Source: an uncultured Ohtaekwangia sp. (GTDB lineage Bacteria > Bacteroidota > Bacteroidia > Cytophagales > Cyclobacteriaceae). Taken from it: a DNA stretch of 64,000 nucleotides. Position 1 is the stretch's first letter. Every line of letters begins with the position of its first letter. The stretch covers positions 2,519 to 66,518 of the forward strand of contig CAZECP010000011.1 in NCBI GenBank assembly GCA_964510765.1, written 5' to 3'. Positions 7,383 through 59,481 of this stretch are shown here, in pieces. The translations under genes were made by a program, and so were the position numbers. A model generated the notes under the pieces. The model was given only the letters and a program-made list of their open reading frames with translations, searched no databases and was not told the origin of the DNA.

Positions 7383-7775
7383 CTACTTCTCCTTTACAAT
7401 TTGAATGATAAAATAAATTGGATAACACAGCAAAAATAAATTAGGCGCCCACCAACTCCAATTATAATCGTGATGGTAAATCCAAAATGAAATAGCCTGC
7501 AGGCCGCTGCAACTGGTAAGCACCAACGAAATCAGTGTGAGGCTTTTCCATTTCGGGATTTCTTTTTTGAATGAATAAATACTTGTCAAGCCTGTAGCCG
7601 ACACCAGCATATCCAGTGGGAAGAACGACCAGTTCCAATGAACGAGAATTGGGTTTGTGTAGTCGTTGTACAAAAATTCATCAGGAATTATTTTAAGAAT
7701 CGTGATGATCCAATAAAGAATAAACCCGATATCAACCAAAAGGAAGAGAGCGTGAAGAACTCTCAGGTTCTTCAT
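7383..7775 (-). CDS. Small integral membrane protein with about 4 TM helices; function unknown
   Basis: 130 aa and strongly hydrophobic. It is packed between neighbours, with an ATGA overlap to the upstream gene at 7772-7775. Confidence 0.6.
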   Translation of the reverse strand: MKNLRVLHALFLLVDIGFILYWIITILKIIPDEFLYNDYTNPILVHWNWSFFPLDMLVSATGLTSIYSFKKEIPKWKSLTLISLVLTSCSGLQAISFWIYHHDYNWSWWAPNLFLLCYPIYFIIQIVKEK

Positions 7776-37607: not shown

Positions 37608-37655
37608 GGCATTCAAACGACATCAACAATTTTCATCTTTGTAAATATTTTAGAC

Positions 37656-38285
37656 ATGCCGCATTCCATTTTGATTTATGAAGATGATCCATCGCTGCGG
37701 CAGAACCTGAGCAGCCTGGTAAAGATCAACCCTGATTGGATGTTGGCGGGCGCTTTTGAAAATGCTTCTGAGGTTGAGACACATCTTTCATATTTACATC
37801 CCGATATTATTTTGATGGACATTGATATGCCGATGATTTCCGGAATTGATGCGGTGCGGAAGATTCGCACACTGGGTTCAAATGTTCATGTGATCATGCT
37901 AACTGTTTTTGAAGATGATCAGCACGTTTTGGATGCAATATTTGCCGGTGCTTCCGGCTATCTTTTAAAGAAACACATCTCTACGCGGCTCAACGATGCA
38001 GTGCATGAAGTTTTGAATGGAGGCGCACCCATGTCGCCAACCATAGCACGGATGGTAATCAGTTCGATGCAAGCACCTACAGCAAAAAACCCATATCAAC
38101 TTACACCACGCGAACAGGAAGTACTCAACTTACTTTCAAAAGGCAACAGTTACAAAATGATTGCAGCCCAAACCGGAGTAGTAATTGACACGGTGCGAGC
38201 CCACATTAAAAGGATTTACGAAAAACTTCAGGTGCATTCTCAGACTGAAGCGGTGGCAAAAGCTATTCATGAAAAATTAGTTTAG
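37656..38285 (+). CDS. NarL/LuxR-family response regulator
   Basis: Receiver domain ('ILIYEDD', 'DIILMDIDMP') plus a C-terminal LuxR HTH ('LTPREQEVLNLLSKGNSYKMIA'). Confidence 0.9.
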   Translation: MPHSILIYEDDPSLRQNLSSLVKINPDWMLAGAFENASEVETHLSYLHPDIILMDIDMPMISGIDAVRKIRTLGSNVHVIMLTVFEDDQHVLDAIFAGASGYLLKKHISTRLNDAVHEVLNGGAPMSPTIARMVISSMQAPTAKNPYQLTPREQEVLNLLSKGNSYKMIAAQTGVVIDTVRAHIKRIYEKLQVHSQTEAVAKAIHEKLV

Positions 38286-39736: not shown

Positions 39737-42700
39737 ATGTTCTCATGTTACAGAATCCTTGTTCTATGTTTCATATTTCTTAGTTCGTTTCGGCTTCAGG
39801 CGCAAATCACTAGTAATTTTTCTTCTACTGATGAAGGATGGAAAGTATTAGACGGTAATACAGGGGCAACCACAACTCCTACTTACAATGCCACAGGGGG
39901 AAATCCTGGAGGAAATATTTCATATGGCACCTTAGCAATTAATGCCAATATCTATTTTGTGGCGCCAGCCAAGTTCAATGGCAATCAAAGTTTGTCCTAC
40001 AATCAGAATCTATCGTTCGATCTACTTGTCTCAAATGCCGGGGCAGACAACTCGCAAAGTGATATAGTTATTTCATCGCCAGCAATAAATTTAATCTATC
40101 AAATGCCGACCAAGCCGTCAACCGGCACATGGAATTCCTACTCCATTTTACTGAATGAAACTGCTGCGAACTGGCATGTCGGAAGTTATTTGGGTACTGC
40201 GCCAACCAAAACTCAAATGAAGCAAGCCTTGTCGAATGTAACGAGTATTCAGATACGCTTGAAATACCTCACGTTTAATACTTTTACTTATACAAGCCAA
40301 TTGGATAATGTAGTGTTAAATCAAGTTACAATCCCCTCCAGCCCAACGATCTCATCTTTTTCACCTGCATCAGGATTGCCAGGCACTACCGTAACAATTA
40401 CCGGAACAAATTTTAATTCTACAGTTGCGCAAAACACGGTTTACTTTAATGGAGCCAAAGCCACCGTTGTCAATGCATCAGCCACAAAGCTTACGGTTAA
40501 GTCTCCATCAAAAATTTCTTACGGACCGATTACCGTTATTAACACCACCAACGGCACACAAGCTACCAGCCGCACCAACTTCAATCCATTGTTCGACAAC
40601 AACAAAGATTTTGGCGGCCGTATCATCGCATCTTCTTTTGGAAAATCCGTGAGCATTGGTACACCACCTTCCTTTCAGGTTGGCACAACTGGTTTTAGTA
40701 TTGGTGATTTGGATGGCGATGGCTGGCAAGATGTTCTTACATCACGCACTGATGCAGGAAATATGTACGCCCAGATTCATCGCAATGCACAGCAGACAAG
40801 TGGCATTAGCGCTGCTTCGTTTGCTGCTCCTGTTACATTGAGTTTGCCAAACAGTCCCGCTGGACTAACGGTAGGGCGTGTGGGTCAAACAGCCATTGCC
40901 GATATGGATGGTGATGGAAAGTTGGATGTGATTGTTAATGTTGGTTACAATTCAGGTAATTACGACAACACGTTTATTATATTTTTAAACCAAAGCACTG
41001 CGGGAAATCTCTCTTTCGCCAGCCCATATATTTTTCAGATTGCAGATGCTCAAAATAATAATGAGGGCATCGCTGTGGCCGATATGGATGGTGATGGCAG
41101 ACCAGACATACTCACCGCTTTTCAAAACAGTGCTTGCCAGTTGACTATTCTCCAAAACTTAAGCTCGCCTGGAAATTTAGATTTTGCCTACCCACAAAAT
41201 TTTGCGCAAGGTGTAACTATGGGCATCGATATTTCACTTGGCGATCTGAATGGTGATAATAAGCCCGAAGTGCTGGTGCAAGCTTACTTGAATAGTGCCA
41301 TCAATGTGTATGAAAACAATTCGACAATTGGCAGTATTTCATTGGGCGTACCATTCAAGTTGAATTCAAACACTACTGCAAACATAAAGGTAGCAGACGT
41401 TGACAATGATGGTAAGAACGATATTTTTTTCAGAGACTATGGAGCAGGGGGACCTATTCTATTAAAGAAAAATAATCATAGTACGGGTGCGTTGACGGCC
41501 GCTGATTTTGGTGCTGATATCACGCTAACACAACAAGCAGGCGGAGGTTTAGGCAGCCCTTATTCATACACAACTGCCGCTGATTTAAATGGTGATAACA
41601 AGTTGGATATCATTGCAGCAGATGGTACCAATATTGCAGTCTACCAAAACAATTTTGTATCCGGTGCTATCTCAGCGAGTTCGTTTTATGCAGGCACCAC
41701 GTTTGAGGGCGGCAACAATTCAAACCAATATATATTAACTGCCGATATTGATGGTGACAACAAACCTGAAATTTTGATTAGACCACAATTGGGTGCTGCG
41801 TTTTGGGTTTATCACAATGAAAATTTTCCGGCACCACAAGTCAGTTCTGTTTTACCTTCTGGTGGAAATGCGGGCACAGCTGTTACCCTTACGGGAATTA
41901 ATTTTAACACCTCAACCAGTAGTAATGTGCCGCAAGTGCGCATGGGTGGAATAGTGACCACTGGCACGAGCTTAACAAATACTTCAGTAAACACTACGTT
42001 GCCTTTGGGTGTTGTGTCACCTCGTGCACAAGTTACAGAGCACGGGCTTGTTGGTTTCAGCAAACCATATTCAACCACCTTCAATGGTGCACAGGTTATC
42101 AATGCTACTTCGTTTTCGTTAGCGGCAGATTTGCCAATGGTGGGTAATGGAAATTATGGATTGGTGGTGGCCGATTTTGATGATGATGGCAAACCGGATA
42201 TTGTTGCCAACGATAATTTTAGCCCAACGCGTGTCTTTCAAAATGTACTTCCATCGGCAGGTGCCAATCTTACCAACACAAGTTTCAGCTTAGCATCATC
42301 ACTTGCTTCAACAACCATTTCAATGGCGGCTGGCGATTTTAATGGAGATGGAAAAATAGATTTGGTAGCGCCTAACAATTTGTTTAGAAACAACAGCGCT
42401 GCGCTACCATCCTTTGCAGCCAGCGTAGGTATCAACCTGCAAAATGCGAATGGCATTATATCAAATCATGATTTTAATTTGGATGGCAAGCCCGACCTTG
42501 CTTCTCTTAACAATGCACAAATATGGGTGTTCGAAAACCTTACGCGCAATGGAGCCTTTACCTATGCTTCAACATTCGAATCATTTGCAACGAGTGGCGT
42601 GCCCCCCACACAACTTACCGTTACAGGTACTACGAGCACAAGCGCCACCAGCTTTGGTCACAGCATGGAATCTTTTGATGCCGATGGTGATGGTTTCGAT

Positions 42701-44674
42701 GATTTACTATTGGGAATAACCAGCACTACTTCGAGCTTAACGGTTTATCCTAACTCCGGGCAAAAAGGCGCGATTACTGCATCACAATTTTCTGCTCCAA
42801 TAACTTTCGCATCAAACGGCACGCCTTCGCGCATAGCTTCTGCTGATTTTGATGGTGATGGAAAAATTGATGTGGCACTTTCTTACAATTCAGGATCGGT
42901 GATTTCCATTTTCAAAAATCAAAGCACAGTGGGTGCCATTTCATTTGCAGCCAAGCAAGACATTACTGCCGGTGCCGGCATTTACGACATGGTGACGAGA
43001 GATCTAGATGGCGATGGCAAACCGGAAATAATCACCACCAACTATGTAGCCGGTGTGAGTACTTCTTTTTCTGTTTTCAAAAACACCAGCGCAGGTTCTA
43101 TTTCATTTACAGCTCCCGTAACTTTTTCATTAACCTCGGGAAGAGTTCCTTACAACTTGGAGGTGGCCGATTTTAATTTGGATGGTAAACCGGATATTGT
43201 AATCCGTGGAAGTGGATCAACTACCAATTTTGTTTCAGTATTTCAGAATAATATACCAACCGTTTCAATTACTGTCGATACCCAACCAAGTCCCTCAACT
43301 GTTTGTGATGGAGTGTCTGCACAGTTCACCACATCTGCATCAGGTACTACCAATATTACTTATCAATGGCAATATTCTTCGGACGGAGTTGTTCCGTTCG
43401 CTGACGTAACAAACACGGGAGGATATTTGAATGTAACCACATCGGCACTTACGATTAATAGCGCTGGAAATTTTGGTGCAGGCGTTTATCGATGCAAGAT
43501 TAGTGGAGATTTTGCAGCTTCGGTTTTCACAAATACAGTTTCATTTACAGTAAACGCATTGCCCGCAGCACCATCTGCGACTGATGGAAATGACTGTGGA
43601 CCGGGAAGCGTAACATTGGTAGCCTCTGGAGGTAGCAACGGACAATATATTTGGTATGATCAGAACGGTGTGATAGCAGGACAAATTAACAACACATACG
43701 TAACACCTGTCATTGCTGCAACAACCCAATATTCGGTTGCCATTACCAATGGAACTTGTGTTAGCACAAAAACAAACGTGCAGGCGGTGATACTTACGGT
43801 TGGTTGTGCAACAATAAATATCACCGCTCAGCCTTCTGATTTCATCGCGTGCGCAGGTGATATTGCAACATTTTCTGCGACAGTAACAGGCACAACCAAC
43901 ATCACCTATCAGTGGCAATTTTCTTCTGACAACGGAGTTACGTTTTCGGATGTTACGAATGGTGGAGGATATTCGAATGTAACCACTTCAACTTTGAGCG
44001 TAAACACGACTGGCAATTTTGGAGTTGGCCGTTATCGTTGTAAAATAAATGGTGATTTTGCCACTACTGTTTTTACAAATGATGAAGGATTGTTCATCAA
44101 TTCAAATAATTGTGCAAAGCCGGTGATTACTGCCGAGCAATTGGCTACCCAGATCGGAGGCAAAGTAATTGTTGACTTAAAGCCGTTGATTACAACTGCT
44201 AACCTTGACCTTACCTCTCTTCAAATAATTTCTCCGCCTTCGAGTGGAGCGACTGCCAGTATAGATGCAAATGGAATCCTCACGATTGACTATGCAGGTA
44301 AAGCCTTTGCGGGGCAAGAAAATATCACAATCAAAGCTTGCGACCAGAATGGCCAATGCTCTACACAGGATTTTAATATTGATGTAGCTGGAGATATCAT
44401 TGTTTACAACGGTATTTCTCCAAATGGTGCAAATCCAAAACTTGTCTTGCAGTATATCGAAATATTGCCCGACACCAAGAATAATTCTGTTTACATATTT
44501 GATCGATGGGAAAATTTGGTATGGCATGGAGATAACTACAACAACGACTCGGTAGTATTCACAGGTTTGAATGATGGGGGAAGTTCATTGCCTTCAGGAG
44601 TTTATTTTTATAAGATCGATTTTGCGAGCGGAAAAAAATCCAAAACCGGGTTCATTTCTTTGAGGAGACAGTAG
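39737..44674 (+). CDS. Giant (1645-aa) secreted FG-GAP/VCBS-repeat protein with IPT/TIG and Ig-like domains and a T9SS type-B (gliding-motility-associated) C-terminal sorting domain
   Basis: Signal peptide. Two IPT/TIG domains ('SFSPASGLPGTTVTITGTNF', 'VLPSGGNAGTAVTLTGINF'). Fourteen D-x-[DN]-x-D-G-x-x-D Ca-binding FG-GAP loops. Two 'TNITYQWQ[YF]SSD' Ig-like modules. C-terminal 'YNGISPNGANPKL...IFDRWENLVWHG...LPSGVYFYKI'. Confidence 0.85.
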   Translation: MFSCYRILVLCFIFLSSFRLQAQITSNFSSTDEGWKVLDGNTGATTTPTYNATGGNPGGNISYGTLAINANIYFVAPAKFNGNQSLSYNQNLSFDLLVSNAGADNSQSDIVISSPAINLIYQMPTKPSTGTWNSYSILLNETAANWHVGSYLGTAPTKTQMKQALSNVTSIQIRLKYLTFNTFTYTSQLDNVVLNQVTIPSSPTISSFSPASGLPGTTVTITGTNFNSTVAQNTVYFNGAKATVVNASATKLTVKSPSKISYGPITVINTTNGTQATSRTNFNPLFDNNKDFGGRIIASSFGKSVSIGTPPSFQVGTTGFSIGDLDGDGWQDVLTSRTDAGNMYAQIHRNAQQTSGISAASFAAPVTLSLPNSPAGLTVGRVGQTAIADMDGDGKLDVIVNVGYNSGNYDNTFIIFLNQSTAGNLSFASPYIFQIADAQNNNEGIAVADMDGDGRPDILTAFQNSACQLTILQNLSSPGNLDFAYPQNFAQGVTMGIDISLGDLNGDNKPEVLVQAYLNSAINVYENNSTIGSISLGVPFKLNSNTTANIKVADVDNDGKNDIFFRDYGAGGPILLKKNNHSTGALTAADFGADITLTQQAGGGLGSPYSYTTAADLNGDNKLDIIAADGTNIAVYQNNFVSGAISASSFYAGTTFEGGNNSNQYILTADIDGDNKPEILIRPQLGAAFWVYHNENFPAPQVSSVLPSGGNAGTAVTLTGINFNTSTSSNVPQVRMGGIVTTGTSLTNTSVNTTLPLGVVSPRAQVTEHGLVGFSKPYSTTFNGAQVINATSFSLAADLPMVGNGNYGLVVADFDDDGKPDIVANDNFSPTRVFQNVLPSAGANLTNTSFSLASSLASTTISMAAGDFNGDGKIDLVAPNNLFRNNSAALPSFAASVGINLQNANGIISNHDFNLDGKPDLASLNNAQIWVFENLTRNGAFTYASTFESFATSGVPPTQLTVTGTTSTSATSFGHSMESFDADGDGFDDLLLGITSTTSSLTVYPNSGQKGAITASQFSAPITFASNGTPSRIASADFDGDGKIDVALSYNSGSVISIFKNQSTVGAISFAAKQDITAGAGIYDMVTRDLDGDGKPEIITTNYVAGVSTSFSVFKNTSAGSISFTAPVTFSLTSGRVPYNLEVADFNLDGKPDIVIRGSGSTTNFVSVFQNNIPTVSITVDTQPSPSTVCDGVSAQFTTSASGTTNITYQWQYSSDGVVPFADVTNTGGYLNVTTSALTINSAGNFGAGVYRCKISGDFAASVFTNTVSFTVNALPAAPSATDGNDCGPGSVTLVASGGSNGQYIWYDQNGVIAGQINNTYVTPVIAATTQYSVAITNGTCVSTKTNVQAVILTVGCATINITAQPSDFIACAGDIATFSATVTGTTNITYQWQFSSDNGVTFSDVTNGGGYSNVTTSTLSVNTTGNFGVGRYRCKINGDFATTVFTNDEGLFINSNNCAKPVITAEQLATQIGGKVIVDLKPLITTANLDLTSLQIISPPSSGATASIDANGILTIDYAGKAFAGQENITIKACDQNGQCSTQDFNIDVAGDIIVYNGISPNGANPKLVLQYIEILPDTKNNSVYIFDRWENLVWHGDNYNNDSVVFTGLNDGGSSLPSGVYFYKIDFASGKKSKTGFISLRRQ
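44117..44671 (+). repeat. Copy 1 of a shared 185-aa C-terminal cassette (Big_9/cadherin-like Ig domain plus T9SS type-B CTD)
   Basis: It aligns without gaps to 47592..48146. My hand count gives 148/185 identical residues. Confidence 0.8.
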
Positions 44675-44765
44675 TGTATTGACACAATTCATTAGTTATG
44701 GACTTTGTATCGTTGAATGGTGTCAATGTATTTTATATCTTCCGATATAATTGAAAAAAAAATAG

Positions 44766-47700
44766 ATGAACCCTTTAAAACAAACTCTGCTGTCTTTCAT
44801 GGAACACAAAAGGCAATTCCTTTTCTCTTTGATAGGGTTTTGCTTTCTGTTTTTACCTATCCTCTCTTCCGCTCAATACACAAAACTGCTTGACTTCGGA
44901 AGCACATCCAAAGGCACGAATCCTTACAGTGCGCCTATTTCGGATGGAACATTTTTATATGGGATGACCACCAGCGGAGGAGCCAACAACCTTGGAACAA
45001 TTTATAAAATCAAAACCGATGGTACCGGCTTCTCAAAGCTATTGGACTTTGATGGAAACAATGGGAGCAATCCATATGGTTCACTTTATTCCGATGGAAC
45101 TTTCCTGTATGGCACTACCTATTCTGGCGGCACAAATAGTCAGGGAACAATCTTCAAATTGAAAACGGATGGCTCAGGATATACAAAACTGTTTGACTTT
45201 GCTTATGCGACAACCGGAGGATTCCCCTACGGTTCATTGATTTCCGATGGCACTTTTCTTTATGGAACAACAAGTCAAGGCGGATCAAAAACATACGGAA
45301 CTGTATTCAAAATAAAAACGGATGGCAGTGGTTTTTTGAAACTTCTGGAATTTGATGGTACTACCAATGGTGGACTTCCTTATGGTTCACTTTACAGCGA
45401 TGGCACTTTTCTTTATGGAACCACAAGTGGACAGTATTTGTCTTTTGGCACCATCTTCAAAGTTCAAACAGATGGAACAAACGCTTCCACAATTTATCAG
45501 TTTACAGGTTCAAACACCCATCCATTTGGAGGGCTGGTCTCAGACGGAACATTTTTATATGGCATGACAAACGGAATAAGTAGTGGTTTCTCTGAGTATG
45601 GAACAATGTTTAAGATCATGCCTGATGGAACCAACTTTTCTGTCATAGTTAATTTTAATAACAATTCACCGGGCGCCACTCCCAAAGGCTCTCTCACTTA
45701 TGACGGTACTTATTTGTATGGAACAACAACCGACTATGGAGCAAATAGCCGGGGAACAATTTTCAAAGTAAAAACAGACGGCAGCGGGCTCACCAAACTT
45801 CTTGACAATAATATTGGAACGAATGGGTCAGCTCCTGAAGGCACTTTGCTTTTAAGTGGCGGTGTGTTGTATGGCGTGAAGTCAGGGTTCGGAGCAGGAG
45901 TTGCACCTTTCCTTCCAGGAACAATTTTCAAGATCAACACGGATGGCAGCAATTATACCAAACTATTTTTCTTTGACACAGAAGGAAACAGCCCGAACGG
46001 TTCACTTTATTCTGATGGTACATTTCTTTATGGAATGACAAACCAAGGTGGGATTTATAACTATGGAACCATTTTCAAAGTCAAGACGGATGGAACGAGC
46101 TTTCAAAGGTTGTATGATTTTGATTTGACCAATGGTAGATTACCATTCGGGTCTCTTGTCTCTGATGGTACATTTCTTTATGGAATGACGAACCAAGGAG
46201 GAACAAACGATGGAGGAGTTGTCTTCAAAATAAAAAAGGACGGAACGAATTTCTCTAAACTGCTCGATTTTGATATCACAAACACAGGAGGCTATCCGCG
46301 TGCGTCATTGTACAGTGATGGAACATTTCTTTATGGAATGACTAACAATGGTGGAGTTAATTCTGCTGGAACGATTTTCAAAATCAAGCCGGATGGTTCT
46401 TCGTATGCCAAGCTACTTGATTTTGATAATGCAACCACAGGAGGCTATCCGTATGGCTCATTATTAAGCGATGGAGTATTTCTTTATGGAACTACCACAT
46501 CAGGAGGAGCTAACGGCAATGGAACAATTTTCAAAATAAAACCCGATGGCAGCAGCTTCACAAATATCCTTGATTTGGAATACACTAGTAGCGGAAACTA
46601 TCCTGCTGGCGACCTTGCCTATGATGGCACCTTCTTGTTCGCACTGTCATCAGGTGGCGGATCAAATGATTCAGGAACAATCATAAAAATAAAACCCGAT
46701 GGAACTGGCTTCGCAAAGTTGTTTGACTTTAACGATTACACAGGAAGCACTCCTTATGGTTCGCTCATTTTAAACGGAGCGTATTTTTATGGAATGTGTC
46801 AGAATGGTGGATCAAATGGTTTGGGCACAACATTCAGGATTAAACCCGATGGGACCGGATTTCAAAAGATGCTTGATCTTGCCGATGGAAGCCATCCGCA
46901 AGGCTCGCTTATTTCGGACGGAACTTTTCTTTATGGAATGACAGCGGGCGGAGGTATAAATGGTCTTGGGACTTTATTTAAGACCACGCTGACTCCATTC
47001 ATTTCAATTTCAAATTTCTCACCACAGGATGCAGTGGAGGGAACTTATATCACGATCAATGGGATTGGCTTCAATCCAACATTTGCCAACAACGTAGTTA
47101 CTTTCAATGGCACATCAGCAGTTGTTGTTTCCGGAACCGATTCAACCTTAGTTGCTATCGTACCTGTAGGAGCGACCACAGGTCCAATTTCTGTGACTTC
47201 AGGTTCAACCGGCACAAGCGCATTTGATTTTATTATTGACACGGATGCAGTGATGGTGGATGTCACCGTTCAAAATTGCAATGTTAATTTTTTGCCACCT
47301 ACGTATGACTATATAAGAAGCCGCAACTACATGGCAACTGAAACCTTCATACCTGTTAACCCAACTGATAAAGTGAAAATATCTTTTTCATCGATTAATA
47401 TGCAGGGTGATGCTTTGTATGTATATGATGGCCCAACTTCTTCCTCTCCTTTACTTGCCACTTTAGATAACACCAATTCGCCAGTGGATATCATAGCGAC
47501 CGGAGTGGGCGGAGAATTGACTTTTGTTTATCAATGGGGTGATGGCACAACAGATTGGCAAGCGACTATCACGTGCGTTTCTGCAAGTGGTGCTCCTGTG
47601 ATTACAACCCAATCCCTGGCAACCCAGATTGGAGGAAAAATTACTCTTGACTTAAAACCCCTTATAACAACCCCCAGCCTGGATTTGGCTTCGCTCCAAG

Positions 47701-48149
47701 TTGTAACGCCACCATCCAGTGGGGCCACTGCAAGCATTGATGCAAACGGTATTCTCACGATTGACTACAATGGGAAATTATTTGCAGGAACAGAACAGGT
47801 CACCATTCAGGCATGCGATGCAAACGGCCAATGTTCGCAACAAACTTTTAATATTGAAGTGGTGGGTGATATTGTGGTTTATAATGGTGTATCGCCAAAT
47901 GGAGCTAATCCGAAATTAGTTATCCAATACATTGATGTATTGCCGGACACTAAGGCAAATAATGTTTACATCTTTGATCGTTGGGAAAATTTGGTGTGGC
48001 ACGGAAATAATTACAACAATGACTCGGTAGTGTTCACCGGATCAAGCGATGGAGGAAGCTCACTTCCCTCCGGAGTATATTTTTACAAAATCGATTTTGT
48101 CAGCGGAAGAAAATCCAAAACCGGATTCATCGCATTGAGGAGGCAATAA
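44766..48149 (+). CDS. Giant (1127-aa) GloVer tandem-repeat protein with IPT/TIG, a CUB-like domain and a T9SS type-B C-terminal sorting domain
   Basis: Fourteen repeats of about 48-50 aa each, of the form '..DGT.F..L.DF....G..P.GSL.SDGTFLYGMT..GG....GTIFKIK.DG', which is the GloVer choice-of-anchor repeat pattern. 'SNFSPQDAVEGTYITINGIGF' is IPT/TIG. 'ALYVYDGPTSSSPLLATL...LTFVY' is CUB-like. The C-terminal cassette is the same as in the previous gene. Confidence 0.85.
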   Translation: MNPLKQTLLSFMEHKRQFLFSLIGFCFLFLPILSSAQYTKLLDFGSTSKGTNPYSAPISDGTFLYGMTTSGGANNLGTIYKIKTDGTGFSKLLDFDGNNGSNPYGSLYSDGTFLYGTTYSGGTNSQGTIFKLKTDGSGYTKLFDFAYATTGGFPYGSLISDGTFLYGTTSQGGSKTYGTVFKIKTDGSGFLKLLEFDGTTNGGLPYGSLYSDGTFLYGTTSGQYLSFGTIFKVQTDGTNASTIYQFTGSNTHPFGGLVSDGTFLYGMTNGISSGFSEYGTMFKIMPDGTNFSVIVNFNNNSPGATPKGSLTYDGTYLYGTTTDYGANSRGTIFKVKTDGSGLTKLLDNNIGTNGSAPEGTLLLSGGVLYGVKSGFGAGVAPFLPGTIFKINTDGSNYTKLFFFDTEGNSPNGSLYSDGTFLYGMTNQGGIYNYGTIFKVKTDGTSFQRLYDFDLTNGRLPFGSLVSDGTFLYGMTNQGGTNDGGVVFKIKKDGTNFSKLLDFDITNTGGYPRASLYSDGTFLYGMTNNGGVNSAGTIFKIKPDGSSYAKLLDFDNATTGGYPYGSLLSDGVFLYGTTTSGGANGNGTIFKIKPDGSSFTNILDLEYTSSGNYPAGDLAYDGTFLFALSSGGGSNDSGTIIKIKPDGTGFAKLFDFNDYTGSTPYGSLILNGAYFYGMCQNGGSNGLGTTFRIKPDGTGFQKMLDLADGSHPQGSLISDGTFLYGMTAGGGINGLGTLFKTTLTPFISISNFSPQDAVEGTYITINGIGFNPTFANNVVTFNGTSAVVVSGTDSTLVAIVPVGATTGPISVTSGSTGTSAFDFIIDTDAVMVDVTVQNCNVNFLPPTYDYIRSRNYMATETFIPVNPTDKVKISFSSINMQGDALYVYDGPTSSSPLLATLDNTNSPVDIIATGVGGELTFVYQWGDGTTDWQATITCVSASGAPVITTQSLATQIGGKITLDLKPLITTPSLDLASLQVVTPPSSGATASIDANGILTIDYNGKLFAGTEQVTIQACDANGQCSQQTFNIEVVGDIVVYNGVSPNGANPKLVIQYIDVLPDTKANNVYIFDRWENLVWHGNNYNNDSVVFTGSSDGGSSLPSGVYFYKIDFVSGRKSKTGFIALRRQ
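47592..48146 (+). repeat. Copy 2 of the shared 185-aa C-terminal cassette
   Basis: See copy 1. Identical peptide stretches such as PPSSGATASIDANGILTIDY are encoded with many synonymous differences. Confidence 0.8.
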
Positions 48150-48186
48150 AATCTCTAACCAACACACAACAAAAGAAAACAATCCC

Positions 48187-49077
48187 ATGAAAAAAATAAT
48201 ACCCATCGTTCTCTTCATTGCAGTTCTGTCAGAAGCAAGAGCGCAACAAGACCCGCTGTATTCGCAATACTTTAACAATCCGATGCTGATCAACCCGGCC
48301 TTTGCGGGAAGTTTTGAAAGACTGTATGCAGGCTTAGGTTATCGTAGCCAATGGTCGGGTATGGATGGTGCACCTACATCATTTAACTTCAATAGTCACC
48401 TATCATTGATGGAGAACAAAGTCGGAGTGGGTGCCTTGATCGTCCAGGACAAACTTGGAGATACAAAGAATACGCAGTTTGGCGCAGCCATTTCTTATCG
48501 CATTAAGTTAACCAACTCCACCTTTTCGTTCGGCATGTTACCAAGCTTCACACAGTATGCTACGGACGGAAACGTTTTGGTTTTAAATCCTGACAGATTA
48601 TTTGGAACATATACTGTGACGAGTTTCAATATAGGAGCGGGGGCATTATTGCAAAATGAAAGATACACTATAAGTTTTTCAGTGCCCCGCCTACTGGCAA
48701 ATACAGCCAACCTTGACGGAATCAATGTGCAAACCTACAGTCAGAATTTTTATTTGTACGGATCGTATAACATCAACCTGAATGAACGGATTCAATTTCG
48801 TCCATCTGTTTTACTAAGGGCAACCGGAGGTACGCCTGTATCAGCCGATGTGAACGCGAATTTGGTCTTCAGCCAAAAATACATGGCTGGATTGTTCACG
48901 CGAAATGTAAACACGTATGGCGTACTAGTGCAAGCGGTGATGGACAAGTACAGGCTGGGGTATATTTTTGAAGTTCCCGGAAAGAGTTCTGCTTTGAATT
49001 TCAACACACATGAAGTGAGCCTGGCTATTTCGCTGGATATACTGCACGATCACAACCATTCGAAAACTGGATTTTAA
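48187..49077 (+). CDS. PorP/SprF-family type IX secretion system membrane protein
   Basis: Signal peptide plus 'QQDPLYSQYFNNPMLINPAFAG' and 'YRSQWSGMDGAPTS', the PorP/SprF N-terminal signature. It begins 37 nt after the type-B CTD gene. Confidence 0.9.
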   Translation: MKKIIPIVLFIAVLSEARAQQDPLYSQYFNNPMLINPAFAGSFERLYAGLGYRSQWSGMDGAPTSFNFNSHLSLMENKVGVGALIVQDKLGDTKNTQFGAAISYRIKLTNSTFSFGMLPSFTQYATDGNVLVLNPDRLFGTYTVTSFNIGAGALLQNERYTISFSVPRLLANTANLDGINVQTYSQNFYLYGSYNINLNERIQFRPSVLLRATGGTPVSADVNANLVFSQKYMAGLFTRNVNTYGVLVQAVMDKYRLGYIFEVPGKSSALNFNTHEVSLAISLDILHDHNHSKTGF

Positions 49078-52510: not shown

Positions 52511-54142
<1,632 letters not shown>

Positions 54143-54283
54143 TCAAATGAGCCGCAAAAGTACGAAAGCGGCAGCTAAATTTTTAGATGACTGTGAAACT
54201 TTCTGTAGCAGTTGAAGATATGCCCTTAATTCAAATGGTTGCAAGCGATTATTTGCGCTTTGATTTTTCTGAATCTATCTAAT

Positions 54284-54448
54284 CCGCACGGCCCGATTTT
54301 GTTTGCTTTTGGATAAGGCGCAGTCGTGCGGTTGAAGGTTCGTGGCCACAGGCCACGAACAACATTTCGCAGAAATCGCGGAGCGATTTCTGCCTTATTC
54401 ATGCGCGAGCACTCATTTGAAAGAGAGACATGCGATTGGTCGCGCATG
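54284..54448. other. Highly structured non-coding segment with four consecutive inverted repeats; a candidate sRNA or leader element
   Basis: Four inverted repeats, all read directly. (1) CCGCACG (54284-90) / CGTGCGG (54325-31). (2) GTTCGTGGCC-aca-GGCCACGAAC (54338-60). (3) GCAGAAATCGC-gga-GCGATTTCTGC (54369-93). (4) CATGCGCGA (54400-08) / TCGCGCATG (54440-48). Confidence 0.4.
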
Positions 54449-54660
54449 TTAGACAAGTTTTGAAAAAAGCCCTCTGGCATCAATTGCCTATTGAACGGTA
54501 ACTCCTTGCAACTAGCCGAAAGGCCAGCTTGAAATTATCCATCACTGAGAAGATAGAACAATCAACCCGCTACTAAAAATTTATTTCCACTATATTAGAC
54601 GCACCCAAACTCTCTTCAAAGGTATGATTCGATGTGTGATTTCAGAAAAGCTTTGTCGAT

Positions 54661-55293
54661 ATGAGCCTTTTGATAGTTGACGATCAGCAACTGCCACGCA
54701 AAGCATTTGTGCGAATGCTGGAGCAAATCATTTTACCTAAGCCTGTTTGCATGCAATGTGGAAACGGAAAAGAAGCATTGATGGAATTGCAAAAGTCAGT
54801 ATTTGACATTGTCTTCCTTGATGTGAGTATGCCTGTGATGGATGGATACGATGCTTGCAAAATCATTCGAACCGAGTATCCTCAAACAGCCGTAATCATG
54901 CTTACGCAGTTTGACAAGGAGAGTTTGTTTATCCATTTCTTCAACCTTGGTGTTCATTCCATCCTCACAAAAGACATTGATCCAAGTGAAGTGTTGACTG
55001 CGATAGAAAAAATCAGAAACGGTGAAAAGTATTTTCCTTTGAAAATTCAGGAAGTAATTCAAAAACAGAGCACTCAACGTAATGGAGGCTCTCAATCCAT
55101 TGACTTGACTGTACAAGAAAAACGGATCATCCAACTTTTGAAAGATGGGCAGACCAGTAAAGAGATTGCACAAGTCTTAAATCTCACTCTTAACACAGTT
55201 AATACATATCGCGACAGGATTCTTGAAAAAACCAAATCGAAAAACGTTGCCGAACTCGTTGCCCTTGGATTTCAAATAGGAATTTTGAGGTAA
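54661..55293 (+). CDS. NarL/LuxR-family response regulator with no adjacent kinase
   Basis: Receiver domain ('LLIVDDQQ', 'DIVFLDVSMPVMDG') plus a LuxR HTH ('LTVQEKRIIQLLKDGQTSKEIA'). Confidence 0.85.
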   Translation: MSLLIVDDQQLPRKAFVRMLEQIILPKPVCMQCGNGKEALMELQKSVFDIVFLDVSMPVMDGYDACKIIRTEYPQTAVIMLTQFDKESLFIHFFNLGVHSILTKDIDPSEVLTAIEKIRNGEKYFPLKIQEVIQKQSTQRNGGSQSIDLTVQEKRIIQLLKDGQTSKEIAQVLNLTLNTVNTYRDRILEKTKSKNVAELVALGFQIGILR

Positions 55294-55423
55294 TCAACCA
55301 ATGTCTGAAAAATCAGACGTTGACAGGCGCGAATCTTTTATTGACATTACCCTCACGTTTTGCAAAACAACTGTAGCCGGAGCAGAGTATCACCGGCAAA
55401 AAAAATATTTAAATTTTATTGTC

Positions 55424-55594
55424 ATGAAAAAAATCATTCTTTTCGTAGGAGCTGTAGTCATTGCCACCTGCACTTTCTTAACCACTCAAGCTTCAGTAGA
55501 TGGAGGCTGTGGTGTGTCTCAATGTGGAGGAGGAAATGATAAGTGCTGCTCACAAGATGGAGCCACTTATTACATTAAGGCTAAGCAGCAGTAA
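55424..55594 (+). CDS. 56-aa secreted Cys/Gly-rich peptide precursor
   Basis: The internal ATG of track ORF 55301..55594 gives MKKIILFVGAVVIATCTFLTTQA|SVDGGCGVSQCGGGNDKCCSQDGATYYIKAKQQ. This has a Sec-type signal with an A-x-A-like site (TQA). The predicted 33-aa mature part has the pattern C-x4-C-x6-CC. A hairpin follows the gene. Confidence 0.55.
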   Translation: MKKIILFVGAVVIATCTFLTTQASVDGGCGVSQCGGGNDKCCSQDGATYYIKAKQQ

Positions 55595-55601
55595 CTTAAA
55601 T

Positions 55602-55626
55602 AGAGGCTGTTTAAAAAACAGCCTCT
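55602..55626 (+). terminator. Stem-loop immediately after the peptide gene (possible terminator or attenuator)
   Basis: AGAGGCTGT-ttaaaaa-ACAGCCTCT is a 9-bp perfect stem, extendable to 11 bp. It starts 8 nt after the stop codon and has no strong T-run. Confidence 0.5.
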
Positions 55627-55671
55627 TACCTCCTTAAAATCCTTTATACAATAAAAAGAAAAAAATCAAAA

Positions 55672-56673
55672 ATGTTTCGAACCCTGCTTATCGGCTCACT
55701 CTTACTTGGGTTAATGCTGTTTTTTCTATTCATAAAAATGAGAAACGAGAAAGCCTCTATCTATAATAATCAATTCAGCAGAAATTATTCTCAGCATGAG
55801 GTGAGATTAAAGATAAAAAGGACAATCTATTATAAGGAAGATTTGAACAATCTTAAGGTTATAAACGGCAAGTATTACCTTGAAAAATTCGATTCACAAA
55901 ATATAGTTTGCATAGATAACAAAGGGAGTGAGCTGCATAGATGGGGTGGCTTAAATTCTGCCATTAAGGCCTCCTTCATAACAAGCTGGGATCTCAATGA
56001 GGGCGTTATTACTATAGTTGATGGACAGCTAAATAAAATATTCTGCTTAAGGGAAAAAGAAAATTCTTTGATTTCAGAAAAGAAATTAGAATTTAAAGTT
56101 ATCAGAGCAGCAAGGCTAAATAAAAACGAATACATAGTTAAAACGCCTGATCCAAAAGATACAGAAAATGAAACATTTAAGAAGATAAATTTAAAAACAT
56201 ACGAAACACACGACCTGACTTACCCATTGCCTAATGTTGAACATCCAGATTTTACTTTGGATGGATATTTCATTAATGGAGTAGGCAATGGTTTTCATAT
56301 TTGCTATAAAACCGGATTCTTTTTTGCCTTTGATTCCCTTGGCAATCATTTATATAATGCAGCCACGATCGATCAAACCCCGCCCCCACAAATAATAACT
56401 ACCGGTCGCGCTAAAAGATATCATCCCCTAACCATTCGCGTAAATCGGTCTGCATCCGCTGATGAGAATACTGTTTATATACTTTCTGGAAGAAAAGCAA
56501 TAAATGATCAGACGACTGGAGATGCTATTGATTGTTACTCTTCTTCAGACGGGCATTATAAAGAAAGTTTTAATCTCCCTTATTTCAAAGGGCTTGCTGC
56601 ATTTGACATTTTCAAAACTAAAAATGGGTTAGTAGCCTTATACCAAAATTACATCGTTGAATATTCTCTATGA
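55672..56673 (+). CDS. N-terminally membrane-anchored, beta-rich protein of unknown function, possibly beta-propeller-like
   Basis: 333 aa with a single N-terminal TM helix (LLIGSLLLGLMLFFLFI). The rest is hydrophilic with recurring short beta-strand-like segments (IVCIDNKG, ITIVDG, VYILSG, LVALYQNYIVEYSL). I recognise no family with confidence. Confidence 0.6.
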   Translation: MFRTLLIGSLLLGLMLFFLFIKMRNEKASIYNNQFSRNYSQHEVRLKIKRTIYYKEDLNNLKVINGKYYLEKFDSQNIVCIDNKGSELHRWGGLNSAIKASFITSWDLNEGVITIVDGQLNKIFCLREKENSLISEKKLEFKVIRAARLNKNEYIVKTPDPKDTENETFKKINLKTYETHDLTYPLPNVEHPDFTLDGYFINGVGNGFHICYKTGFFFAFDSLGNHLYNAATIDQTPPPQIITTGRAKRYHPLTIRVNRSASADENTVYILSGRKAINDQTTGDAIDCYSSSDGHYKESFNLPYFKGLAAFDIFKTKNGLVALYQNYIVEYSL

Positions 56674-57104
56674 AAAGTAAACTACAGCTAGCTGATATTA
56701 TAATTTTTCTTCTTGCCATACTTTTTATTTATGCAAGCTTATCGAAATTATTTATTCTCGAGGAATTCAGAAAACAGCTAAGACAGTCTCCGTTGATACC
56801 GGAAAGTATGATTGTTTTTATTTCCTATTTTATTCCATTTTCAGAACTGATAGTTACAATCCTTCTTTTTATTGATAAAACAAAAATAAAAGCTCTTTAT
56901 GGATCATTCTTTTTAATGTTCGCTTTTACTCTCTACTTATTGTTACTTATTTCAATAGACGAGACCCTACCTTGTTCTTGCGGAGGTATCTTAGGGAAAA
57001 TGGGTTATCATGCACATATTGTTTTCAATTTGATGTTCTGTATAATTATTTTAACAGGGATATGGTTAGAAAATAGAATTCCTAAACTAGGAAGCAATGA
57101 ATAA
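56670..57104 (+). CDS. MauE/DoxX-family redox-associated membrane protein
   Basis: 144 aa with 4 TM helices. 'IFLLAILFIYASLSKL', 'LRQSPLIP' and the motif 'LPCSCGGILGKMGYHAHIVFN' match the Bacteroidota MauE-like family from memory. It has an ATGA overlap with the upstream gene. Confidence 0.7.
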   Translation: MKSKLQLADIIIFLLAILFIYASLSKLFILEEFRKQLRQSPLIPESMIVFISYFIPFSELIVTILLFIDKTKIKALYGSFFLMFAFTLYLLLLISIDETLPCSCGGILGKMGYHAHIVFNLMFCIIILTGIWLENRIPKLGSNE

Positions 57105-59481
57105 AATCTACATTAGAGAGGCATTTCGCTTTTTTTCGAAAAATGTTGCTTTTGCTTATCTGAATTTTTTTGGTTTATTATTCGGTTTTATAGCCTCACT
57201 AATTCTTGTATCCTACGTTAATTTCCAATTAAGTTTTGACTCCTTTCATCCTGAGGCCGACAAAATCTTTAGAGTACAAATTGGTGAGGGAGATACTGCA
57301 CCGAAAACTTTCCCTGCACTATCCACTGCCTTGAAAGATAAATGTGCAGATTGTCTTTTAACAAGGCTTAAGAGCGTAAGTGGGAGCATCGGAAGTGAAA
57401 ACTCTCCCTTTCAGGAACAAAAGATTTACTGGGTGGACGATTCATTTTTGTCCTTACTTGAATATCCTCTTCTTTCAGGCAAACGCGATGAAGTTTTGAA
57501 AAGAAAAAATACAGCTGTTATTAGCGAAAAGCTGGCAGCGATGCTATTTGGACAAAATGATCCTGTTGGAAGGACATTTATTTTTTCAGATCTATACAAT
57601 AGAGAAACTCGTTTTGAAATAACTGGTGTGCTTGCCAATGTTTCATTCAATTCGCACCTTACTTTTGATGCCCTTTTTTCCTATAGCACTCTAGAAGAAA
57701 GTTCACCAGATTATCAGTATGGGTGGAGCTGGCGTGGCGTTTATACTTACATTAAGTTACCAGACGTGCGCCAAACCATTAAAATAAATAGCTACTATTC
57801 CGAAATTGTAAATAAGTATAAAGACCAACCAAACAATTCAATCCAGGCGAATGAAAAAATCAATTTGGTGCCTATTCAAAACGTTCATCTTTATTCTCAT
57901 TCATCTGCCGATTCTGAAACGTATGGTAATATTGAAGTTGTTTATTTTTTATCCGGCTTTGCAATTTTAATCTTCATTATTTCAGTCTTTAACTACCTTA
58001 ATCTTACAGTAGTTTCAGCAACTTTTCGCAATAAGGAGATTGGAATCAAAAAGATTCTTGGAGCTAGCAAAATAGAAATCATTAGACAGTTTTTCATTGA
58101 ATCAATTCTTATTTACGGATTAGCATTTATTTTCTCAGTTTGCATATTAATCATTGTTTTTCCTTACATCAATGAAATTGTGCATATCCAAAATCCAATT
58201 GTATTACTTAAAAACCTGACGGTCATCGGCATGATATTCACAACACTCCTTTCAGGAGTATTTGTATCATGTCTCTACACTTTTATCTTATCAAGTAAAA
58301 CCCAACCGTTAAATATCATCAGCAATACTTATAATAAGACAATAAAGAGCCCGGCCAGAATTTTGGTAGTAGTTCAACTTATAGTAACTATTTTTCTATT
58401 AGTTTCAGCTTATACCATCTATTTGCAAATAAACTATATGCGAAGTCGTGATCTTGGGATTAACACAAATAGGATTATGGTTATTAAACCCCCAAGAAAT
58501 ATTGAGGGTCTCCAATCTTCGCACAGCCAATTCAAAAATTCTTTACTGAATTTGAATGCAATTAGCTCTTTCACCGCTTGTAGCCAAGTGCCTGGAAAAA
58601 AAATTACCGGTAGTTGGTGGGATGTTGAGCCTGAAGATAAGCGATTTACTCCAGATGCTAATGCAGAGTACTTTCTATTGCAAACAGATGGTCAATTTGT
58701 TAGTGTTTTTGAACTGAAATTGATTTACGGTAGAAATTTTAAAAAAGAGGATGTCCAGAAAATAATAATCAATGAAAAATCAGTCAAATTGCTGGGGTTT
58801 CAATCTCCAATAGATGCTGTTGATCAAAATTTAAAAGTGGGAAGTGAGACTTACAATATAATTGGTATCGTTAAAGATTATCACCATCTGTCTTTGCGTG
58901 AAGACATTTTACCCCTTATTATCAGCAACAAAGAAATCACTTCACCCTACTATGCATTAAAAGTTAATGCTGATGAACAACTTGTCTCAGTGATTTCCGA
59001 CATAGAAAAAATTTGGAAAGCTTCCTACACCAATAACGCGTTTGACTACTTTTTTTTAAACGAAGCATTTGACAAACAATATCAAGATGATGTGAGATTT
59101 GGAAAAACAATTGGAATCATAGCATTTTTAATCATGATCATCTCGTATTTTGGATTAGTCGGTACACTAGTTTTTGCAACTCAAAAGAGATCTAAAGAAA
59201 TAAGTATCCGAAGATTGCTTGGCTGTGATACAAAATCCATTTTTGTCCTTTTCTTCAAGAGTAATGCTGTTCAGATAATTGTTGCCGCTATTATTTCCCT
59301 TCCTATCTCATTTTATTTACTACAGGCTTGGATTACAAGATATCCTTTTAGAATTGAATTGACAGTTCAGTTGTTTTTGTATCCTGTACTTTTTGTTTTT
59401 ATAATATCAATAATATCAGTTAATATGGTTGTTACAAGAATAGTGCACAGTCAAAGTATCATTGAAAAACTTAAGGATTAA
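57097..59481 (+). CDS. Full-length FtsX/MacB-like ABC transporter permease
   Basis: 794 aa with the same architecture as 22397..24784 ('EIGIKKILGA', 'EISIRRLLGC'). It overlaps the MauE-like gene by 8 nt and has no adjacent ATPase. Confidence 0.85.
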   Translation: MNKIYIREAFRFFSKNVAFAYLNFFGLLFGFIASLILVSYVNFQLSFDSFHPEADKIFRVQIGEGDTAPKTFPALSTALKDKCADCLLTRLKSVSGSIGSENSPFQEQKIYWVDDSFLSLLEYPLLSGKRDEVLKRKNTAVISEKLAAMLFGQNDPVGRTFIFSDLYNRETRFEITGVLANVSFNSHLTFDALFSYSTLEESSPDYQYGWSWRGVYTYIKLPDVRQTIKINSYYSEIVNKYKDQPNNSIQANEKINLVPIQNVHLYSHSSADSETYGNIEVVYFLSGFAILIFIISVFNYLNLTVVSATFRNKEIGIKKILGASKIEIIRQFFIESILIYGLAFIFSVCILIIVFPYINEIVHIQNPIVLLKNLTVIGMIFTTLLSGVFVSCLYTFILSSKTQPLNIISNTYNKTIKSPARILVVVQLIVTIFLLVSAYTIYLQINYMRSRDLGINTNRIMVIKPPRNIEGLQSSHSQFKNSLLNLNAISSFTACSQVPGKKITGSWWDVEPEDKRFTPDANAEYFLLQTDGQFVSVFELKLIYGRNFKKEDVQKIIINEKSVKLLGFQSPIDAVDQNLKVGSETYNIIGIVKDYHHLSLREDILPLIISNKEITSPYYALKVNADEQLVSVISDIEKIWKASYTNNAFDYFFLNEAFDKQYQDDVRFGKTIGIIAFLIMIISYFGLVGTLVFATQKRSKEISIRRLLGCDTKSIFVLFFKSNAVQIIVAAIISLPISFYLLQAWITRYPFRIELTVQLFLYPVLFVFIISIISVNMVVTRIVHSQSIIEKLKD

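Follow-up and report, generated by a model that had tools for sequence, protein, structure and literature searches.

A conserved triad of peptide, propeller and MauE genes predicted to mature small disulfide-bonded secreted peptides in Bacteroidota

A dedicated thiol oxidase in a peptide locus has precedents in MauE/D of methylamine dehydrogenase (MADH) and in BdbB, which is encoded in the operon of sublancin 168. In the mau cluster of Paracoccus, the genes follow the order mauB (the propeller), mauE, mauD (thioredoxin-like) and mauA (the Cys-rich small subunit). In E. coli, MauE from two phyla (Caldithrix and Desulfatibacillum) takes over the role of DsbB. The protein has an essential CXC pair between helices 3 and 4 and is expected to act via a thioredoxin-fold carrier; it was proposed to be possibly the second most common disulfide-forming membrane protein of bacteria (bioRxiv 10.64898/2026.03.05.709764, 2026). 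The heat-stable enterotoxin STII of E. coli follows a route from Sec through DsbA/DsbB, where it acquires two disulfides, to MacAB-TolC (PMC5985334). Here, we analyzed a five-gene locus in a 64-kb stretch of contig CAZECP010000011.1 from an uncultured Ohtaekwangia sp. (the window), encoding a response regulator, a small Cys-rich peptide, an anchored β-propeller, MauE and a duplicated MacB/FtsX-type permease. All of these protein families except that of the peptide are already known (MauE, MacB/FtsX, NarL-type response regulator, NHL propeller). An earlier annotation, referred to below as the original prediction, had taken the five genes for a self-contained module that makes, folds and exports or resists an extracellular peptide.

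By sequence comparison, the conserved unit consists of three genes, not five: the Cys-rich peptide or peptides with Sec signals, the propeller and MauE. The five-gene form in the window is, on the same comparison, one clade-specific elaboration of this triad. Genomic context was taken for three close and seven progressively more distant relatives of the propeller, with metagenomic loci denoted by L numbers. A PF07291 MauE gene directly followed the propeller gene, often overlapping it, in all nine relatives with downstream DNA, which ranged from 43% identity out to a profile E-value of 3e-15; the tenth, on a short contig, had a partial MauE open reading frame (ORF). In the reverse test, 61 metagenomic loci were fetched by the MauE motif PC[SA]CGGILG. 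The propeller adjoined MauE on the same strand in 34 of them, and seven were too short to judge. Judged by gene order, the propeller is an obligate partner of MauE in these loci.

The third member of the triad was recognized in the same DNA. Of 31 evaluable non-redundant clusters, 27 had a neighboring small ORF that encodes a signal peptide and two or more Cys residues, and 24 had one with four or more, against background rates of 0.20 (at least two Cys) and 0.033 (at least four Cys) per 2.1 kb. Chance co-occurrence of Cys-peptide ORFs was rejected on these background rates. The gene order recurs in unrelated metagenomic contigs. Since the permease and the regulator vary between clades, the functional core comprises the peptide, the propeller and MauE. 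The five-gene unit of the original prediction thus held for these three genes, whereas FtsX was confined to a narrow clade and the response regulator was replaced elsewhere. The linkage on which that prediction depended survived: the small ORF is conserved beside homologues of the 333-aa, MauE and FtsX genes.

The peptide ORF comprises 56 aa from an ATG at 55424 and is nested in a longer ORF of 97 aa that starts at 55301; the 56-aa form has the correct start, because the orthologues begin at MKK. The precursor carries a Sec-type signal peptide, made up of MKK, a hydrophobic stretch and a predicted cleavage site between TQA and S. The predicted mature part of ≈33 aa (SVDGGCGVSQCGGGNDKCCSQDGATYYIKAKQQ) contains four Cys residues, arranged as C-x4-C-x6-CC, plus an aromatic pair. 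Its predicted mass is 3328.6 Da (33-aa form, reduced), in agreement with the Sec-exported peptide of about 3.3 kDa that had been envisaged. The 26-codon core differs from that of L001 at 12 synonymous and 4 non-synonymous codons, and because these substitutions are mostly synonymous, the small ORF is, on codon comparison, a genuine coding gene.

Each of the three nearest propeller homologues (38–43% identity) has a small ORF of 56–60 aa upstream. The mature part is almost unchanged in those with DNA there, L001 and L002–L004, and reads GGCGVSQCGGG(N/D)DKCCS..GAT(Y/F)Y.KAK. Near-identical cores are found in the orthologues of L001, L002, L007, L019, P0008 and P0009, and all copies of this peptide share the MKK start, the hydrophobic stretch and a small-residue cleavage site. 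A strict motif, in which a signal peptide is followed by C-x3-5-C-x4-9-CC, occurred 20 times in 525 kb searched on both strands, solely at propeller/MauE clusters. Three Cys patterns recur across clusters, C-x4-C-x6-CC, CxC..C..CP and CC..C..CP, and two other peptide types accompany other propeller clades, YCHCEPDLTCNSTGAWGIKTQICP and CCDDFG.VC...NG...LGP....CP. Type A peptides keep the aromatic pair as T-Y-Y, F-Y, W-Y or W-W, whereas types B and C are without it. Tandem paralogues (three in L005, two each in L019 and L001) have identical signal peptides and diverged cores, and in L002 an extra diverged copy on the minus strand (7490–7675) faces the end of the FtsX gene in convergent orientation. 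In several more distant relatives the predicted cleavage leaves an N-terminal Gln, as in the signal-peptidase-I “Q-rule” of Bacteroidota (PMC5837995). The peptide had no match in Pfam or NCBIfam, and a PDB sequence search with the peptide profile gave nothing significant.

The 333-aa protein, previously described only as anchored and β-rich, is modeled as a transmembrane-anchored six-bladed NHL-type β-propeller. The AlphaFold2 (AF2) model built on a 24-sequence alignment (pLDDT 93.5, pTM 0.89) has a helix at residues 2–30 followed by 26 strands, and supersedes an earlier model from four sequences (pLDDT 74). When the family profile was searched against the PDB, the NHL domain of Thin was matched at 2.6e-15 in five stretches, and TRIM2, TRIM3, TRIM71, the exported protein BF0058 of Bacteroides fragilis (4raa), SOQ1 and NHLRC2 were also matched; the MADH heavy chains were unmatched at E ≤ 10. 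The top superpositions in Foldseek were NHL domains, including that of Brat (target-normalised TM-score 0.68, root-mean-square deviation 4.4 Å), and a Foldseek search of viral structures returned generic propellers only.

The family, collected by an exhaustive profile search, has 1,341 or more representatives at E ≤ 1e-3, 270 of them at E ≤ 1e-10, nearly all of 330–350 aa. Every named family member that was looked up, from Bergeyella, Chitinophagaceae, Ignavibacteria and Thermochlorobacteriaceae metagenome-assembled genomes, is annotated as “hypothetical protein”, and no characterised unrelated function was found for the 333-aa protein. Two scans with propeller alignments A1 and A4 through a collection of species-representative genomes gave no confirmed relative. 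The window propeller matched nothing in Pfam or NCBIfam and did not match PF17170 (DUF5128) at E ≤ 1; only the distant relatives P0024 and P0040 passed the PF17170 threshold (37–41 bits vs. 22.9). Six residues are invariant in 24 diverse members: R37, G198, D287, Y289, G294 and Y296. Because this set contains neither His nor Cys, the propeller sequence looks more like that of a scaffold for binding than like that of a redox enzyme or metalloenzyme. A redox role for the propeller was considered and rejected; its single Cys varies across the family. From its sequence, the propeller probably lies on the periplasmic side of the membrane.

The gene after the propeller gene encodes a clear MauE, matching PF07291 at 2e-28 (99.7 bits vs. 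a cut-off of 27) over profile positions 4–128 of 128. Its CXC motif, P-C102-S-C104-G-G, sits between hydrophobic segments 3 and 4 in a topology read by eye from the charged loops, and the motifs PC[S/A/K]CG and SPL[I/L]P are invariant in MauE from all nine loci compared. By analogy with its homologues, the window MauE is predicted to generate disulfides as DsbB does, in a quinone-linked manner. The part in oxidative folding that the original prediction had given to it agrees with the experiments on homologues (bioRxiv 10.64898/2026.03.05.709764) and with the invariance of the CXC motif. A PDB sequence search with the MauE profile gave nothing significant. Variants of this protein and of its neighborhood were also seen. 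In L025 (5986–7482) and L037 (5944–7494), MauE is fused to a C-terminal extension of ≈350 aa (498 and 516 aa in total), and the opposite strand carries several genes of small to medium size upstream of it. Five loci (L057, L064, L067, L068 and L072) contain the same MauE type and no propeller; they encode on the opposite strand a protein of ≈1000 aa, whose N-terminus resembles class I lanthipeptide dehydratases by eye, and they also hold a SusC/SusD-like pair and a secreted protein of ≈100 aa. MauE may serve several different peptide systems in Bacteroidota.

The permease, of the type VII ABC class, matched MacB_PCD (2.6e-24) and FtsX (2.2e-20) of Pfam in two stretches each and has no ATPase domain. 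Its nearest solved relative is MacB (5lil, E = 7e-8). Two NCBIfam models were matched below their cut-offs, the ADOP duplicated permease (8e-54; 183 vs. 622) and DarB, the darobactin exporter permease (7e-38; 130 vs. 700). A permease gene whose start overlaps the MauE stop by 4–20 nt comes after MauE in the window, the P0002 locus, L001, L002, L005 and L013. The three downstream genes of the original prediction are thus found together in these six non-redundant loci, down to 35% propeller identity. The permease is orthologous to the FtsX proteins of L001, L002 and L005 (34–44% identity), compared with 26% identity to a paralogue in the window (22397–24784). On these sequence relationships it would be an export or immunity component specific to the window's clade. 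The paralogue is itself a duplicated FtsX/MacB_PCD permease, of 795 aa, with a GC content at third codon positions (GC3) of 0.47 and no adjacent ATPase. The presence of ATPase-less FtsX paralogues suggests that they share one ATPase encoded elsewhere. Among the window's proteins, one of the ABC-F type (two ABC_tran domains and ABC_tran_Xtn) is the sole ABC ATPase, and a cognate permease ATPase was not found there. The adaptors of L005 and L008 and the outer-membrane factor of L005 gave no match in the window when used as phmmer queries. In L005 itself, the adaptor, outer-membrane factor and ABC ATPase lie immediately upstream.

In other clades, a different gene joins the triad as its fourth member, in place of the permease. 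This is an OMP_b-brl_3 or TonB-receptor-like barrel in seven clusters, an RND pump with its adaptor in L008, and a TlpA-type thioredoxin in L009; some triads have no recognisable fourth gene. A barrel with a CarboxypepD_reg N-terminus was observed after MauE in L014, L019, L020/22/23/26, L029, L063 and L065, and in L045 an OMP_b-brl_3 barrel gene precedes the propeller. The absence of radical-SAM, Lan, C39 and TlpA proteins had been used to set the locus apart from named classes. None of the hallmarks of bacteriocins and of peptides made by ribosomes and modified post-translationally (RiPPs), namely LanB/C/M, a radical-SAM maturase, a C39 exporter or a GG leader, was found in the five proteins or the Pfam-checked flanks, and a TlpA/thioredoxin query was null across the window. 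TlpA-type thioredoxins occur in related loci, and the absence of TlpA is therefore not a defining feature.

The response regulator matched Response_reg (2e-25) and GerE (1.7e-11) of Pfam and is of the NarL/LuxR type, with an acidic pocket at D7 and D8 and a presumed phospho-acceptor Asp in FLDVSMP, both read from the sequence. An orthologous regulator of 215 aa occupies the same place in L002–L004, while a LytTR-type regulator stands there instead in L008, L019, L027, L029 and L063, and an AraC type in L005 and L010. Its distribution among the loci marks it as an accessory, clade-specific regulator of the module. No histidine kinase adjoins the regulator, which has the ABC-F gene and the peptide gene as neighbors, and the sole kinase found in the window (HisKA_3, 35556–37607) pairs with its own response regulator at 37656–38285. 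Between the regulator and peptide genes, two TTGACA hexamers form a direct repeat with 21 nt from start to start (55320–55346), and L002 has TTGACA/TTGACT with 13-nt spacing in the same position (2966–2984). From their sequence, these could be a binding site for the regulator or simply promoter −35-like elements. No common regulator site was found upstream of the peptide genes: the TTGACA spacing differs, and L001 and L002 share a different element.

The hairpin that follows the peptide gene has an 11-bp stem and no T-run on the plus strand. At the matching place in L001 (≈270–300) and L002 (≈3276–3310), a hairpin is followed by a T-run. The hairpin is probably a partial terminator or attenuator. 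The region upstream of the locus is an intergenic stretch of 524 nt (54137–54660) between the divergent ABC-F and response regulator genes, and had been described as structured and about 520 nt long; the part from 54290 to 54480 indeed folds far better than shuffled sequences (z ≈ −4.5 on either strand). Three strong hairpins lie there in series, for example GTTCGTGGCC-ACA-GGCCACGAAC and GCAGAAATCGC-GGA-GCGATTTCTGC. Rfam gave no family for the whole window at the gathering threshold or for 54100–55700 at E ≤ 1, and the region had no second copy among the repeat families of the window. We kept it outside the module, because L002 has only ≈113 nt between the upstream gene and the regulator gene. 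The structured region may represent a small RNA, a site for protein binding or an island-boundary remnant.

The five co-directional ORFs, the two gene overlaps and the hairpin were all found where the original prediction had placed them (Table 1). The overlaps were read directly from the sequence: an ATGA shared by the propeller and MauE genes at 56670–56673, and 8 nt shared by the MauE and permease genes at 57097–57104. GC content over the five genes is 34.6%, the minimum among 4.8-kb stretches of the window (mean 41.5%, standard deviation 1.8), and GC3 of the propeller, MauE and FtsX genes is 0.32, 0.26 and 0.30, respectively, compared with 0.46–0.48 in the flanking genes and the FtsX paralogue. 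In L002 the module borders Tn7-like genes, and in L006 its neighbor is an IS200-like gene. From these observations we infer that the five-gene locus is a horizontally acquired island. At 8867–12493 of L002, just past the extra peptide copy, there are genes for Tn7-like tniQ and tniB and a Mu-type transposase, which fits a mobile module.

Table 1. Positions of the genes and other features of the locus, numbered from the first nucleotide of the window.
Feature	Position	Strand	Basis or remark
Response regulator gene	54661..55293	+	Pfam
56-aa Cys-rich peptide precursor gene	55424..55594	+	Orthologue and codon comparison
Hairpin, 11-bp stem	55602..55626	+	Between peptide and propeller genes
NHL-type propeller gene, 333 aa	55672..56673	+	AF2, family profile, Foldseek
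MauE gene	56670..57104	+	PF07291
Duplicated MacB/FtsX-type permease gene	57097..59481	+	Pfam MacB_PCD ×2, FtsX ×2
Low-GC island (span of the five genes)	54661..59481		GC and GC3

Domain checks and phmmer searches of the 64-kb window revealed no MacB-type ATPase, adaptor, outer-membrane factor, thioredoxin or kinase adjacent to the regulator, and the module is in this sense not self-contained, contrary to the original prediction. The PADLOC models gave only weak helix-turn-helix and receiver matches for the response regulator and none for the other four proteins. Elsewhere in the window, at 39737–49077, two genes for very large proteins with CHU_C signals of type IX secretion are followed by a PorP/SprF gene. 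One of the two proteins has 1645 aa and FG-GAP repeats; the other has 1127 aa, with tandem repeats of 150–153 nt at 44.9–47.0 kb. A gene pair for a TPR-HisKA_3 kinase and a LuxR-type response regulator (35556–38285) lies upstream of them. The PorP/SprF and CHU_C markers of type IX secretion identify the source genome as one of Bacteroidota.

Taken together, the sequence comparisons are consistent with a module, acquired horizontally, whose small secreted peptide is disulfide-bonded, matured in the periplasm and exported by a MacB-type route, a reading that we regard as evenly poised between right and wrong. In such a module, Sec would export the 56-aa precursor, and signal peptidase I would cleave it to a four-Cys peptide of ≈3.3 kDa. 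The overlapping propeller and MauE genes would supply a two-protein periplasmic machine in fixed proportion, in which the anchored NHL propeller might bind or present the peptide while the periplasmic CXC pair of MauE, whose activity is taken from its homologues, would deliver the oxidising power needed for two disulfides. The MacB-type permease of the window's clade would then expel the oxidised peptide from the periplasm, with its ATPase, adaptor and outer-membrane channel necessarily encoded elsewhere. Through the hairpin 3′ of the peptide gene, precursor transcripts would outnumber those of the machinery, and the island would be turned on by the response regulator, itself answering to an unlinked kinase. 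Judging from the conserved sequences, the triad probably matures, and in the window's clade exports, a new family of disulfide-bonded peptides. Their role is the least certain step; bacteriocin-like antagonism or signalling is the most likely one on present sequence evidence.

Several observations weigh against this scheme. Many triads, among them those with type B and C peptides (e.g., L035, L043 and L050–L055), have no transporter gene nearby, and export is therefore not obligatory to the conserved system; the ATPase, adaptor and outer-membrane channel of the permease are nowhere in the 64 kb. In 20 of the 54 evaluable loci retrieved by the MauE motif, there is no propeller and the neighbors are different, so that MauE of this type also occurs outside the system. 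The charges around the transmembrane helix support a periplasmic orientation of the propeller only weakly. Oxidation by MauE directly or with the help of the propeller, without a thioredoxin carrier, is speculative, because there is no thioredoxin in the window, while the 2026 preprint argues for such a carrier in the normal action of MauE. Finally, 22 of 26 residues of the peptide core are kept between the window and L001, compared with 41% identity for the propeller, and this fits a fixed partner or target just as well as a diffusible product.

This last point bears on the strongest rival, namely that the peptide is not released but serves the propeller as a small, disulfide-rich subunit or ligand, in the way that MauA, which depends on MauE/MauD to mature, sits on MauB, with the two forming a periplasmic enzyme, sensor or receptor to which the permease or barrel is an accessory. 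We consider this unlikely, if less so than the other alternatives below. The order mauB-mauE-mauD-mauA parallels that of propeller, MauE, thioredoxin (in L009) and peptide, and the first genetic role of MauE was in maturation of the MADH small subunit; yet the propeller here is six-bladed, of the NHL type, and lacks a match to the MADH heavy chain, a MauG-like gene is absent, and the peptides have no conserved Trp pair. A peptide core far better kept than the propeller would suit a stable subunit, whereas one to three diverged peptide paralogues per single propeller would not. Many triads do without a transporter, as this rival would expect, but most clades have pumps or barrels alongside the triad, and the hairpin or terminator after the peptide gene suggests that peptide is made in excess.

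Envelope defence or detoxification, resembling Bce- or MacB-type resistance, would assign the removal of foreign peptides to the permease and induction to the response regulator, leaving the rest as periplasmic helpers, for example a decoy or redox sensor. Pairs of MacB/FtsX-type permeases and response regulators are known in peptide-antibiotic sensing and resistance (PMC5985334), the window genome has further FtsX paralogues, and the locus is an acquired island. In these loci, however, the permease and the regulator are the least conserved parts, and the peptide, propeller and MauE persist alone; because the permease and regulator are dispensable, a resistance or sensing module is improbable. 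Neither a kinase nor an ATPase is adjacent, and peptide genes that are diversified, tandem and equipped with signal peptides look like products rather than helpers. We give as little weight to an enzymatic propeller that adds a further modification to the peptide, for example at the aromatic pair or the C-terminus, in a periplasmic RiPP-like pathway where MauE would make only the disulfides. Peptidyl-α-hydroxyglycine lyase is a peptide-processing six-bladed propeller of the NHL type, and the linkage between propeller and peptide is as tight as for a maturase. The 24 propellers have no invariant His or Cys and no set of metal ligands, their invariant residues are typical blade positions, and by TM-score the best structural matches are binding NHL domains, with no enzyme prominent. 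The aromatic pair that such an enzyme might act on is retained in type A peptides but missing from types B and C.

A periplasmic maturation module thus remains our preferred reading. We also considered, as a tentative and rather doubtful extension of it, that the propeller and MauE form an unrecognised maturation machine in which the propeller replaces a DsbA/MauD-type carrier as partner of a quinone-linked oxidase or adds a further modification, and which would define a new and widespread family of Sec-dependent peptides with periplasmic maturation in the Bacteroidota–Ignavibacteria–Chlorobi lineage. That family, on the same tentative footing, would use at least three Cys scaffolds and pass its peptides to MacB-type pumps, RND pumps or outer-membrane barrels according to clade. 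The loci supply genetically linked candidate clients of MauE beyond methylamine dehydrogenase, in the form of 30-aa peptides with four Cys residues. With an NHL propeller rather than a thioredoxin as the partner, disulfide transfer by MauE becomes directly testable. The loci also point to an overlooked peptide family, small, secreted and disulfide-bonded, in Bacteroidota of soil and rhizosphere and, if the peptides are indeed antimicrobial or signalling molecules, to a compact new scaffold that comes with a maturation cassette of its own.

The system was not described in the papers found by literature searches on MauE, propeller, DUF5128, NVEALA, RiPP and Bacteroidota. In particular, we found no published description of the triad, of the propeller as the fixed neighbor of MauE, of the three Cys scaffolds or of an interchangeable fourth gene for crossing the envelope. 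Individual parts resemble described proteins. Human NHLRC2 and plant SOQ1 couple a six-bladed NHL propeller to a thiol-redox component (PMC6107167; bioRxiv 10.1101/2021.03.16.435614), but in those proteins a thioredoxin-like domain is fused, while MauE is separate here, and the similarity is limited to the NHL repeat motifs. The DUF5128/DUF4221-type propellers of Bacteroides (4raa, BF0058; 3s9j, BVU_1028) have the same fold and are related in sequence (4raa matches the family profile at E = 2e-7), whereas the window protein itself does not match PF17170. The DarB/ADOP permeases share with ours the duplicated FtsX-MacB_PCD architecture, a length of ≈780–800 aa and linkage to a peptide product; the scores are far under the family cut-offs, and equivalents of DarC, DarD and DarE are absent.

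Three systems resemble the locus as a whole. The mau cluster likewise has a PF07291 protein with four helices and the CXC motif in loop 3–4, a small secreted Cys-rich polypeptide and a propeller gene. It differs in that MauD, MauG, MauA and MauB are missing from our locus, the propeller is a six-bladed NHL type and not a seven-bladed heavy chain, the peptides are ≈30 aa long without a tryptophan-quinone site, and the hosts belong to the Bacteroidota–Ignavibacteria–Chlorobi lineage. Sublancin and LytTR class II bacteriocin loci also unite precursors, a disulfide-forming membrane protein, a transporter and a response regulator in one mobile locus, with tandem, diversified precursor paralogues. 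Here, a Sec signal takes the place of the double-glycine leader, no C39-peptidase ABC exporter is present, MauE stands in for the DsbB homologue and the propeller is an additional partner; since the host is Gram-negative, maturation would be periplasmic, unlike in sublancin-type loci. The STII route differs in that its components are not co-encoded as one island and its oxidase is DsbB rather than MauE. Here, a DsbA-like protein, MacA and TolC are not linked, the permease, an FtsX protein, is duplicated and lacks an ATPase domain, and the NHL propeller, which is the most tightly linked gene, is without an STII counterpart. What the two have in common is a small four-Cys peptide with a Sec signal, a DsbB-like membrane oxidase and a MacB-type permease acting on periplasmic substrates (PMC5985334).

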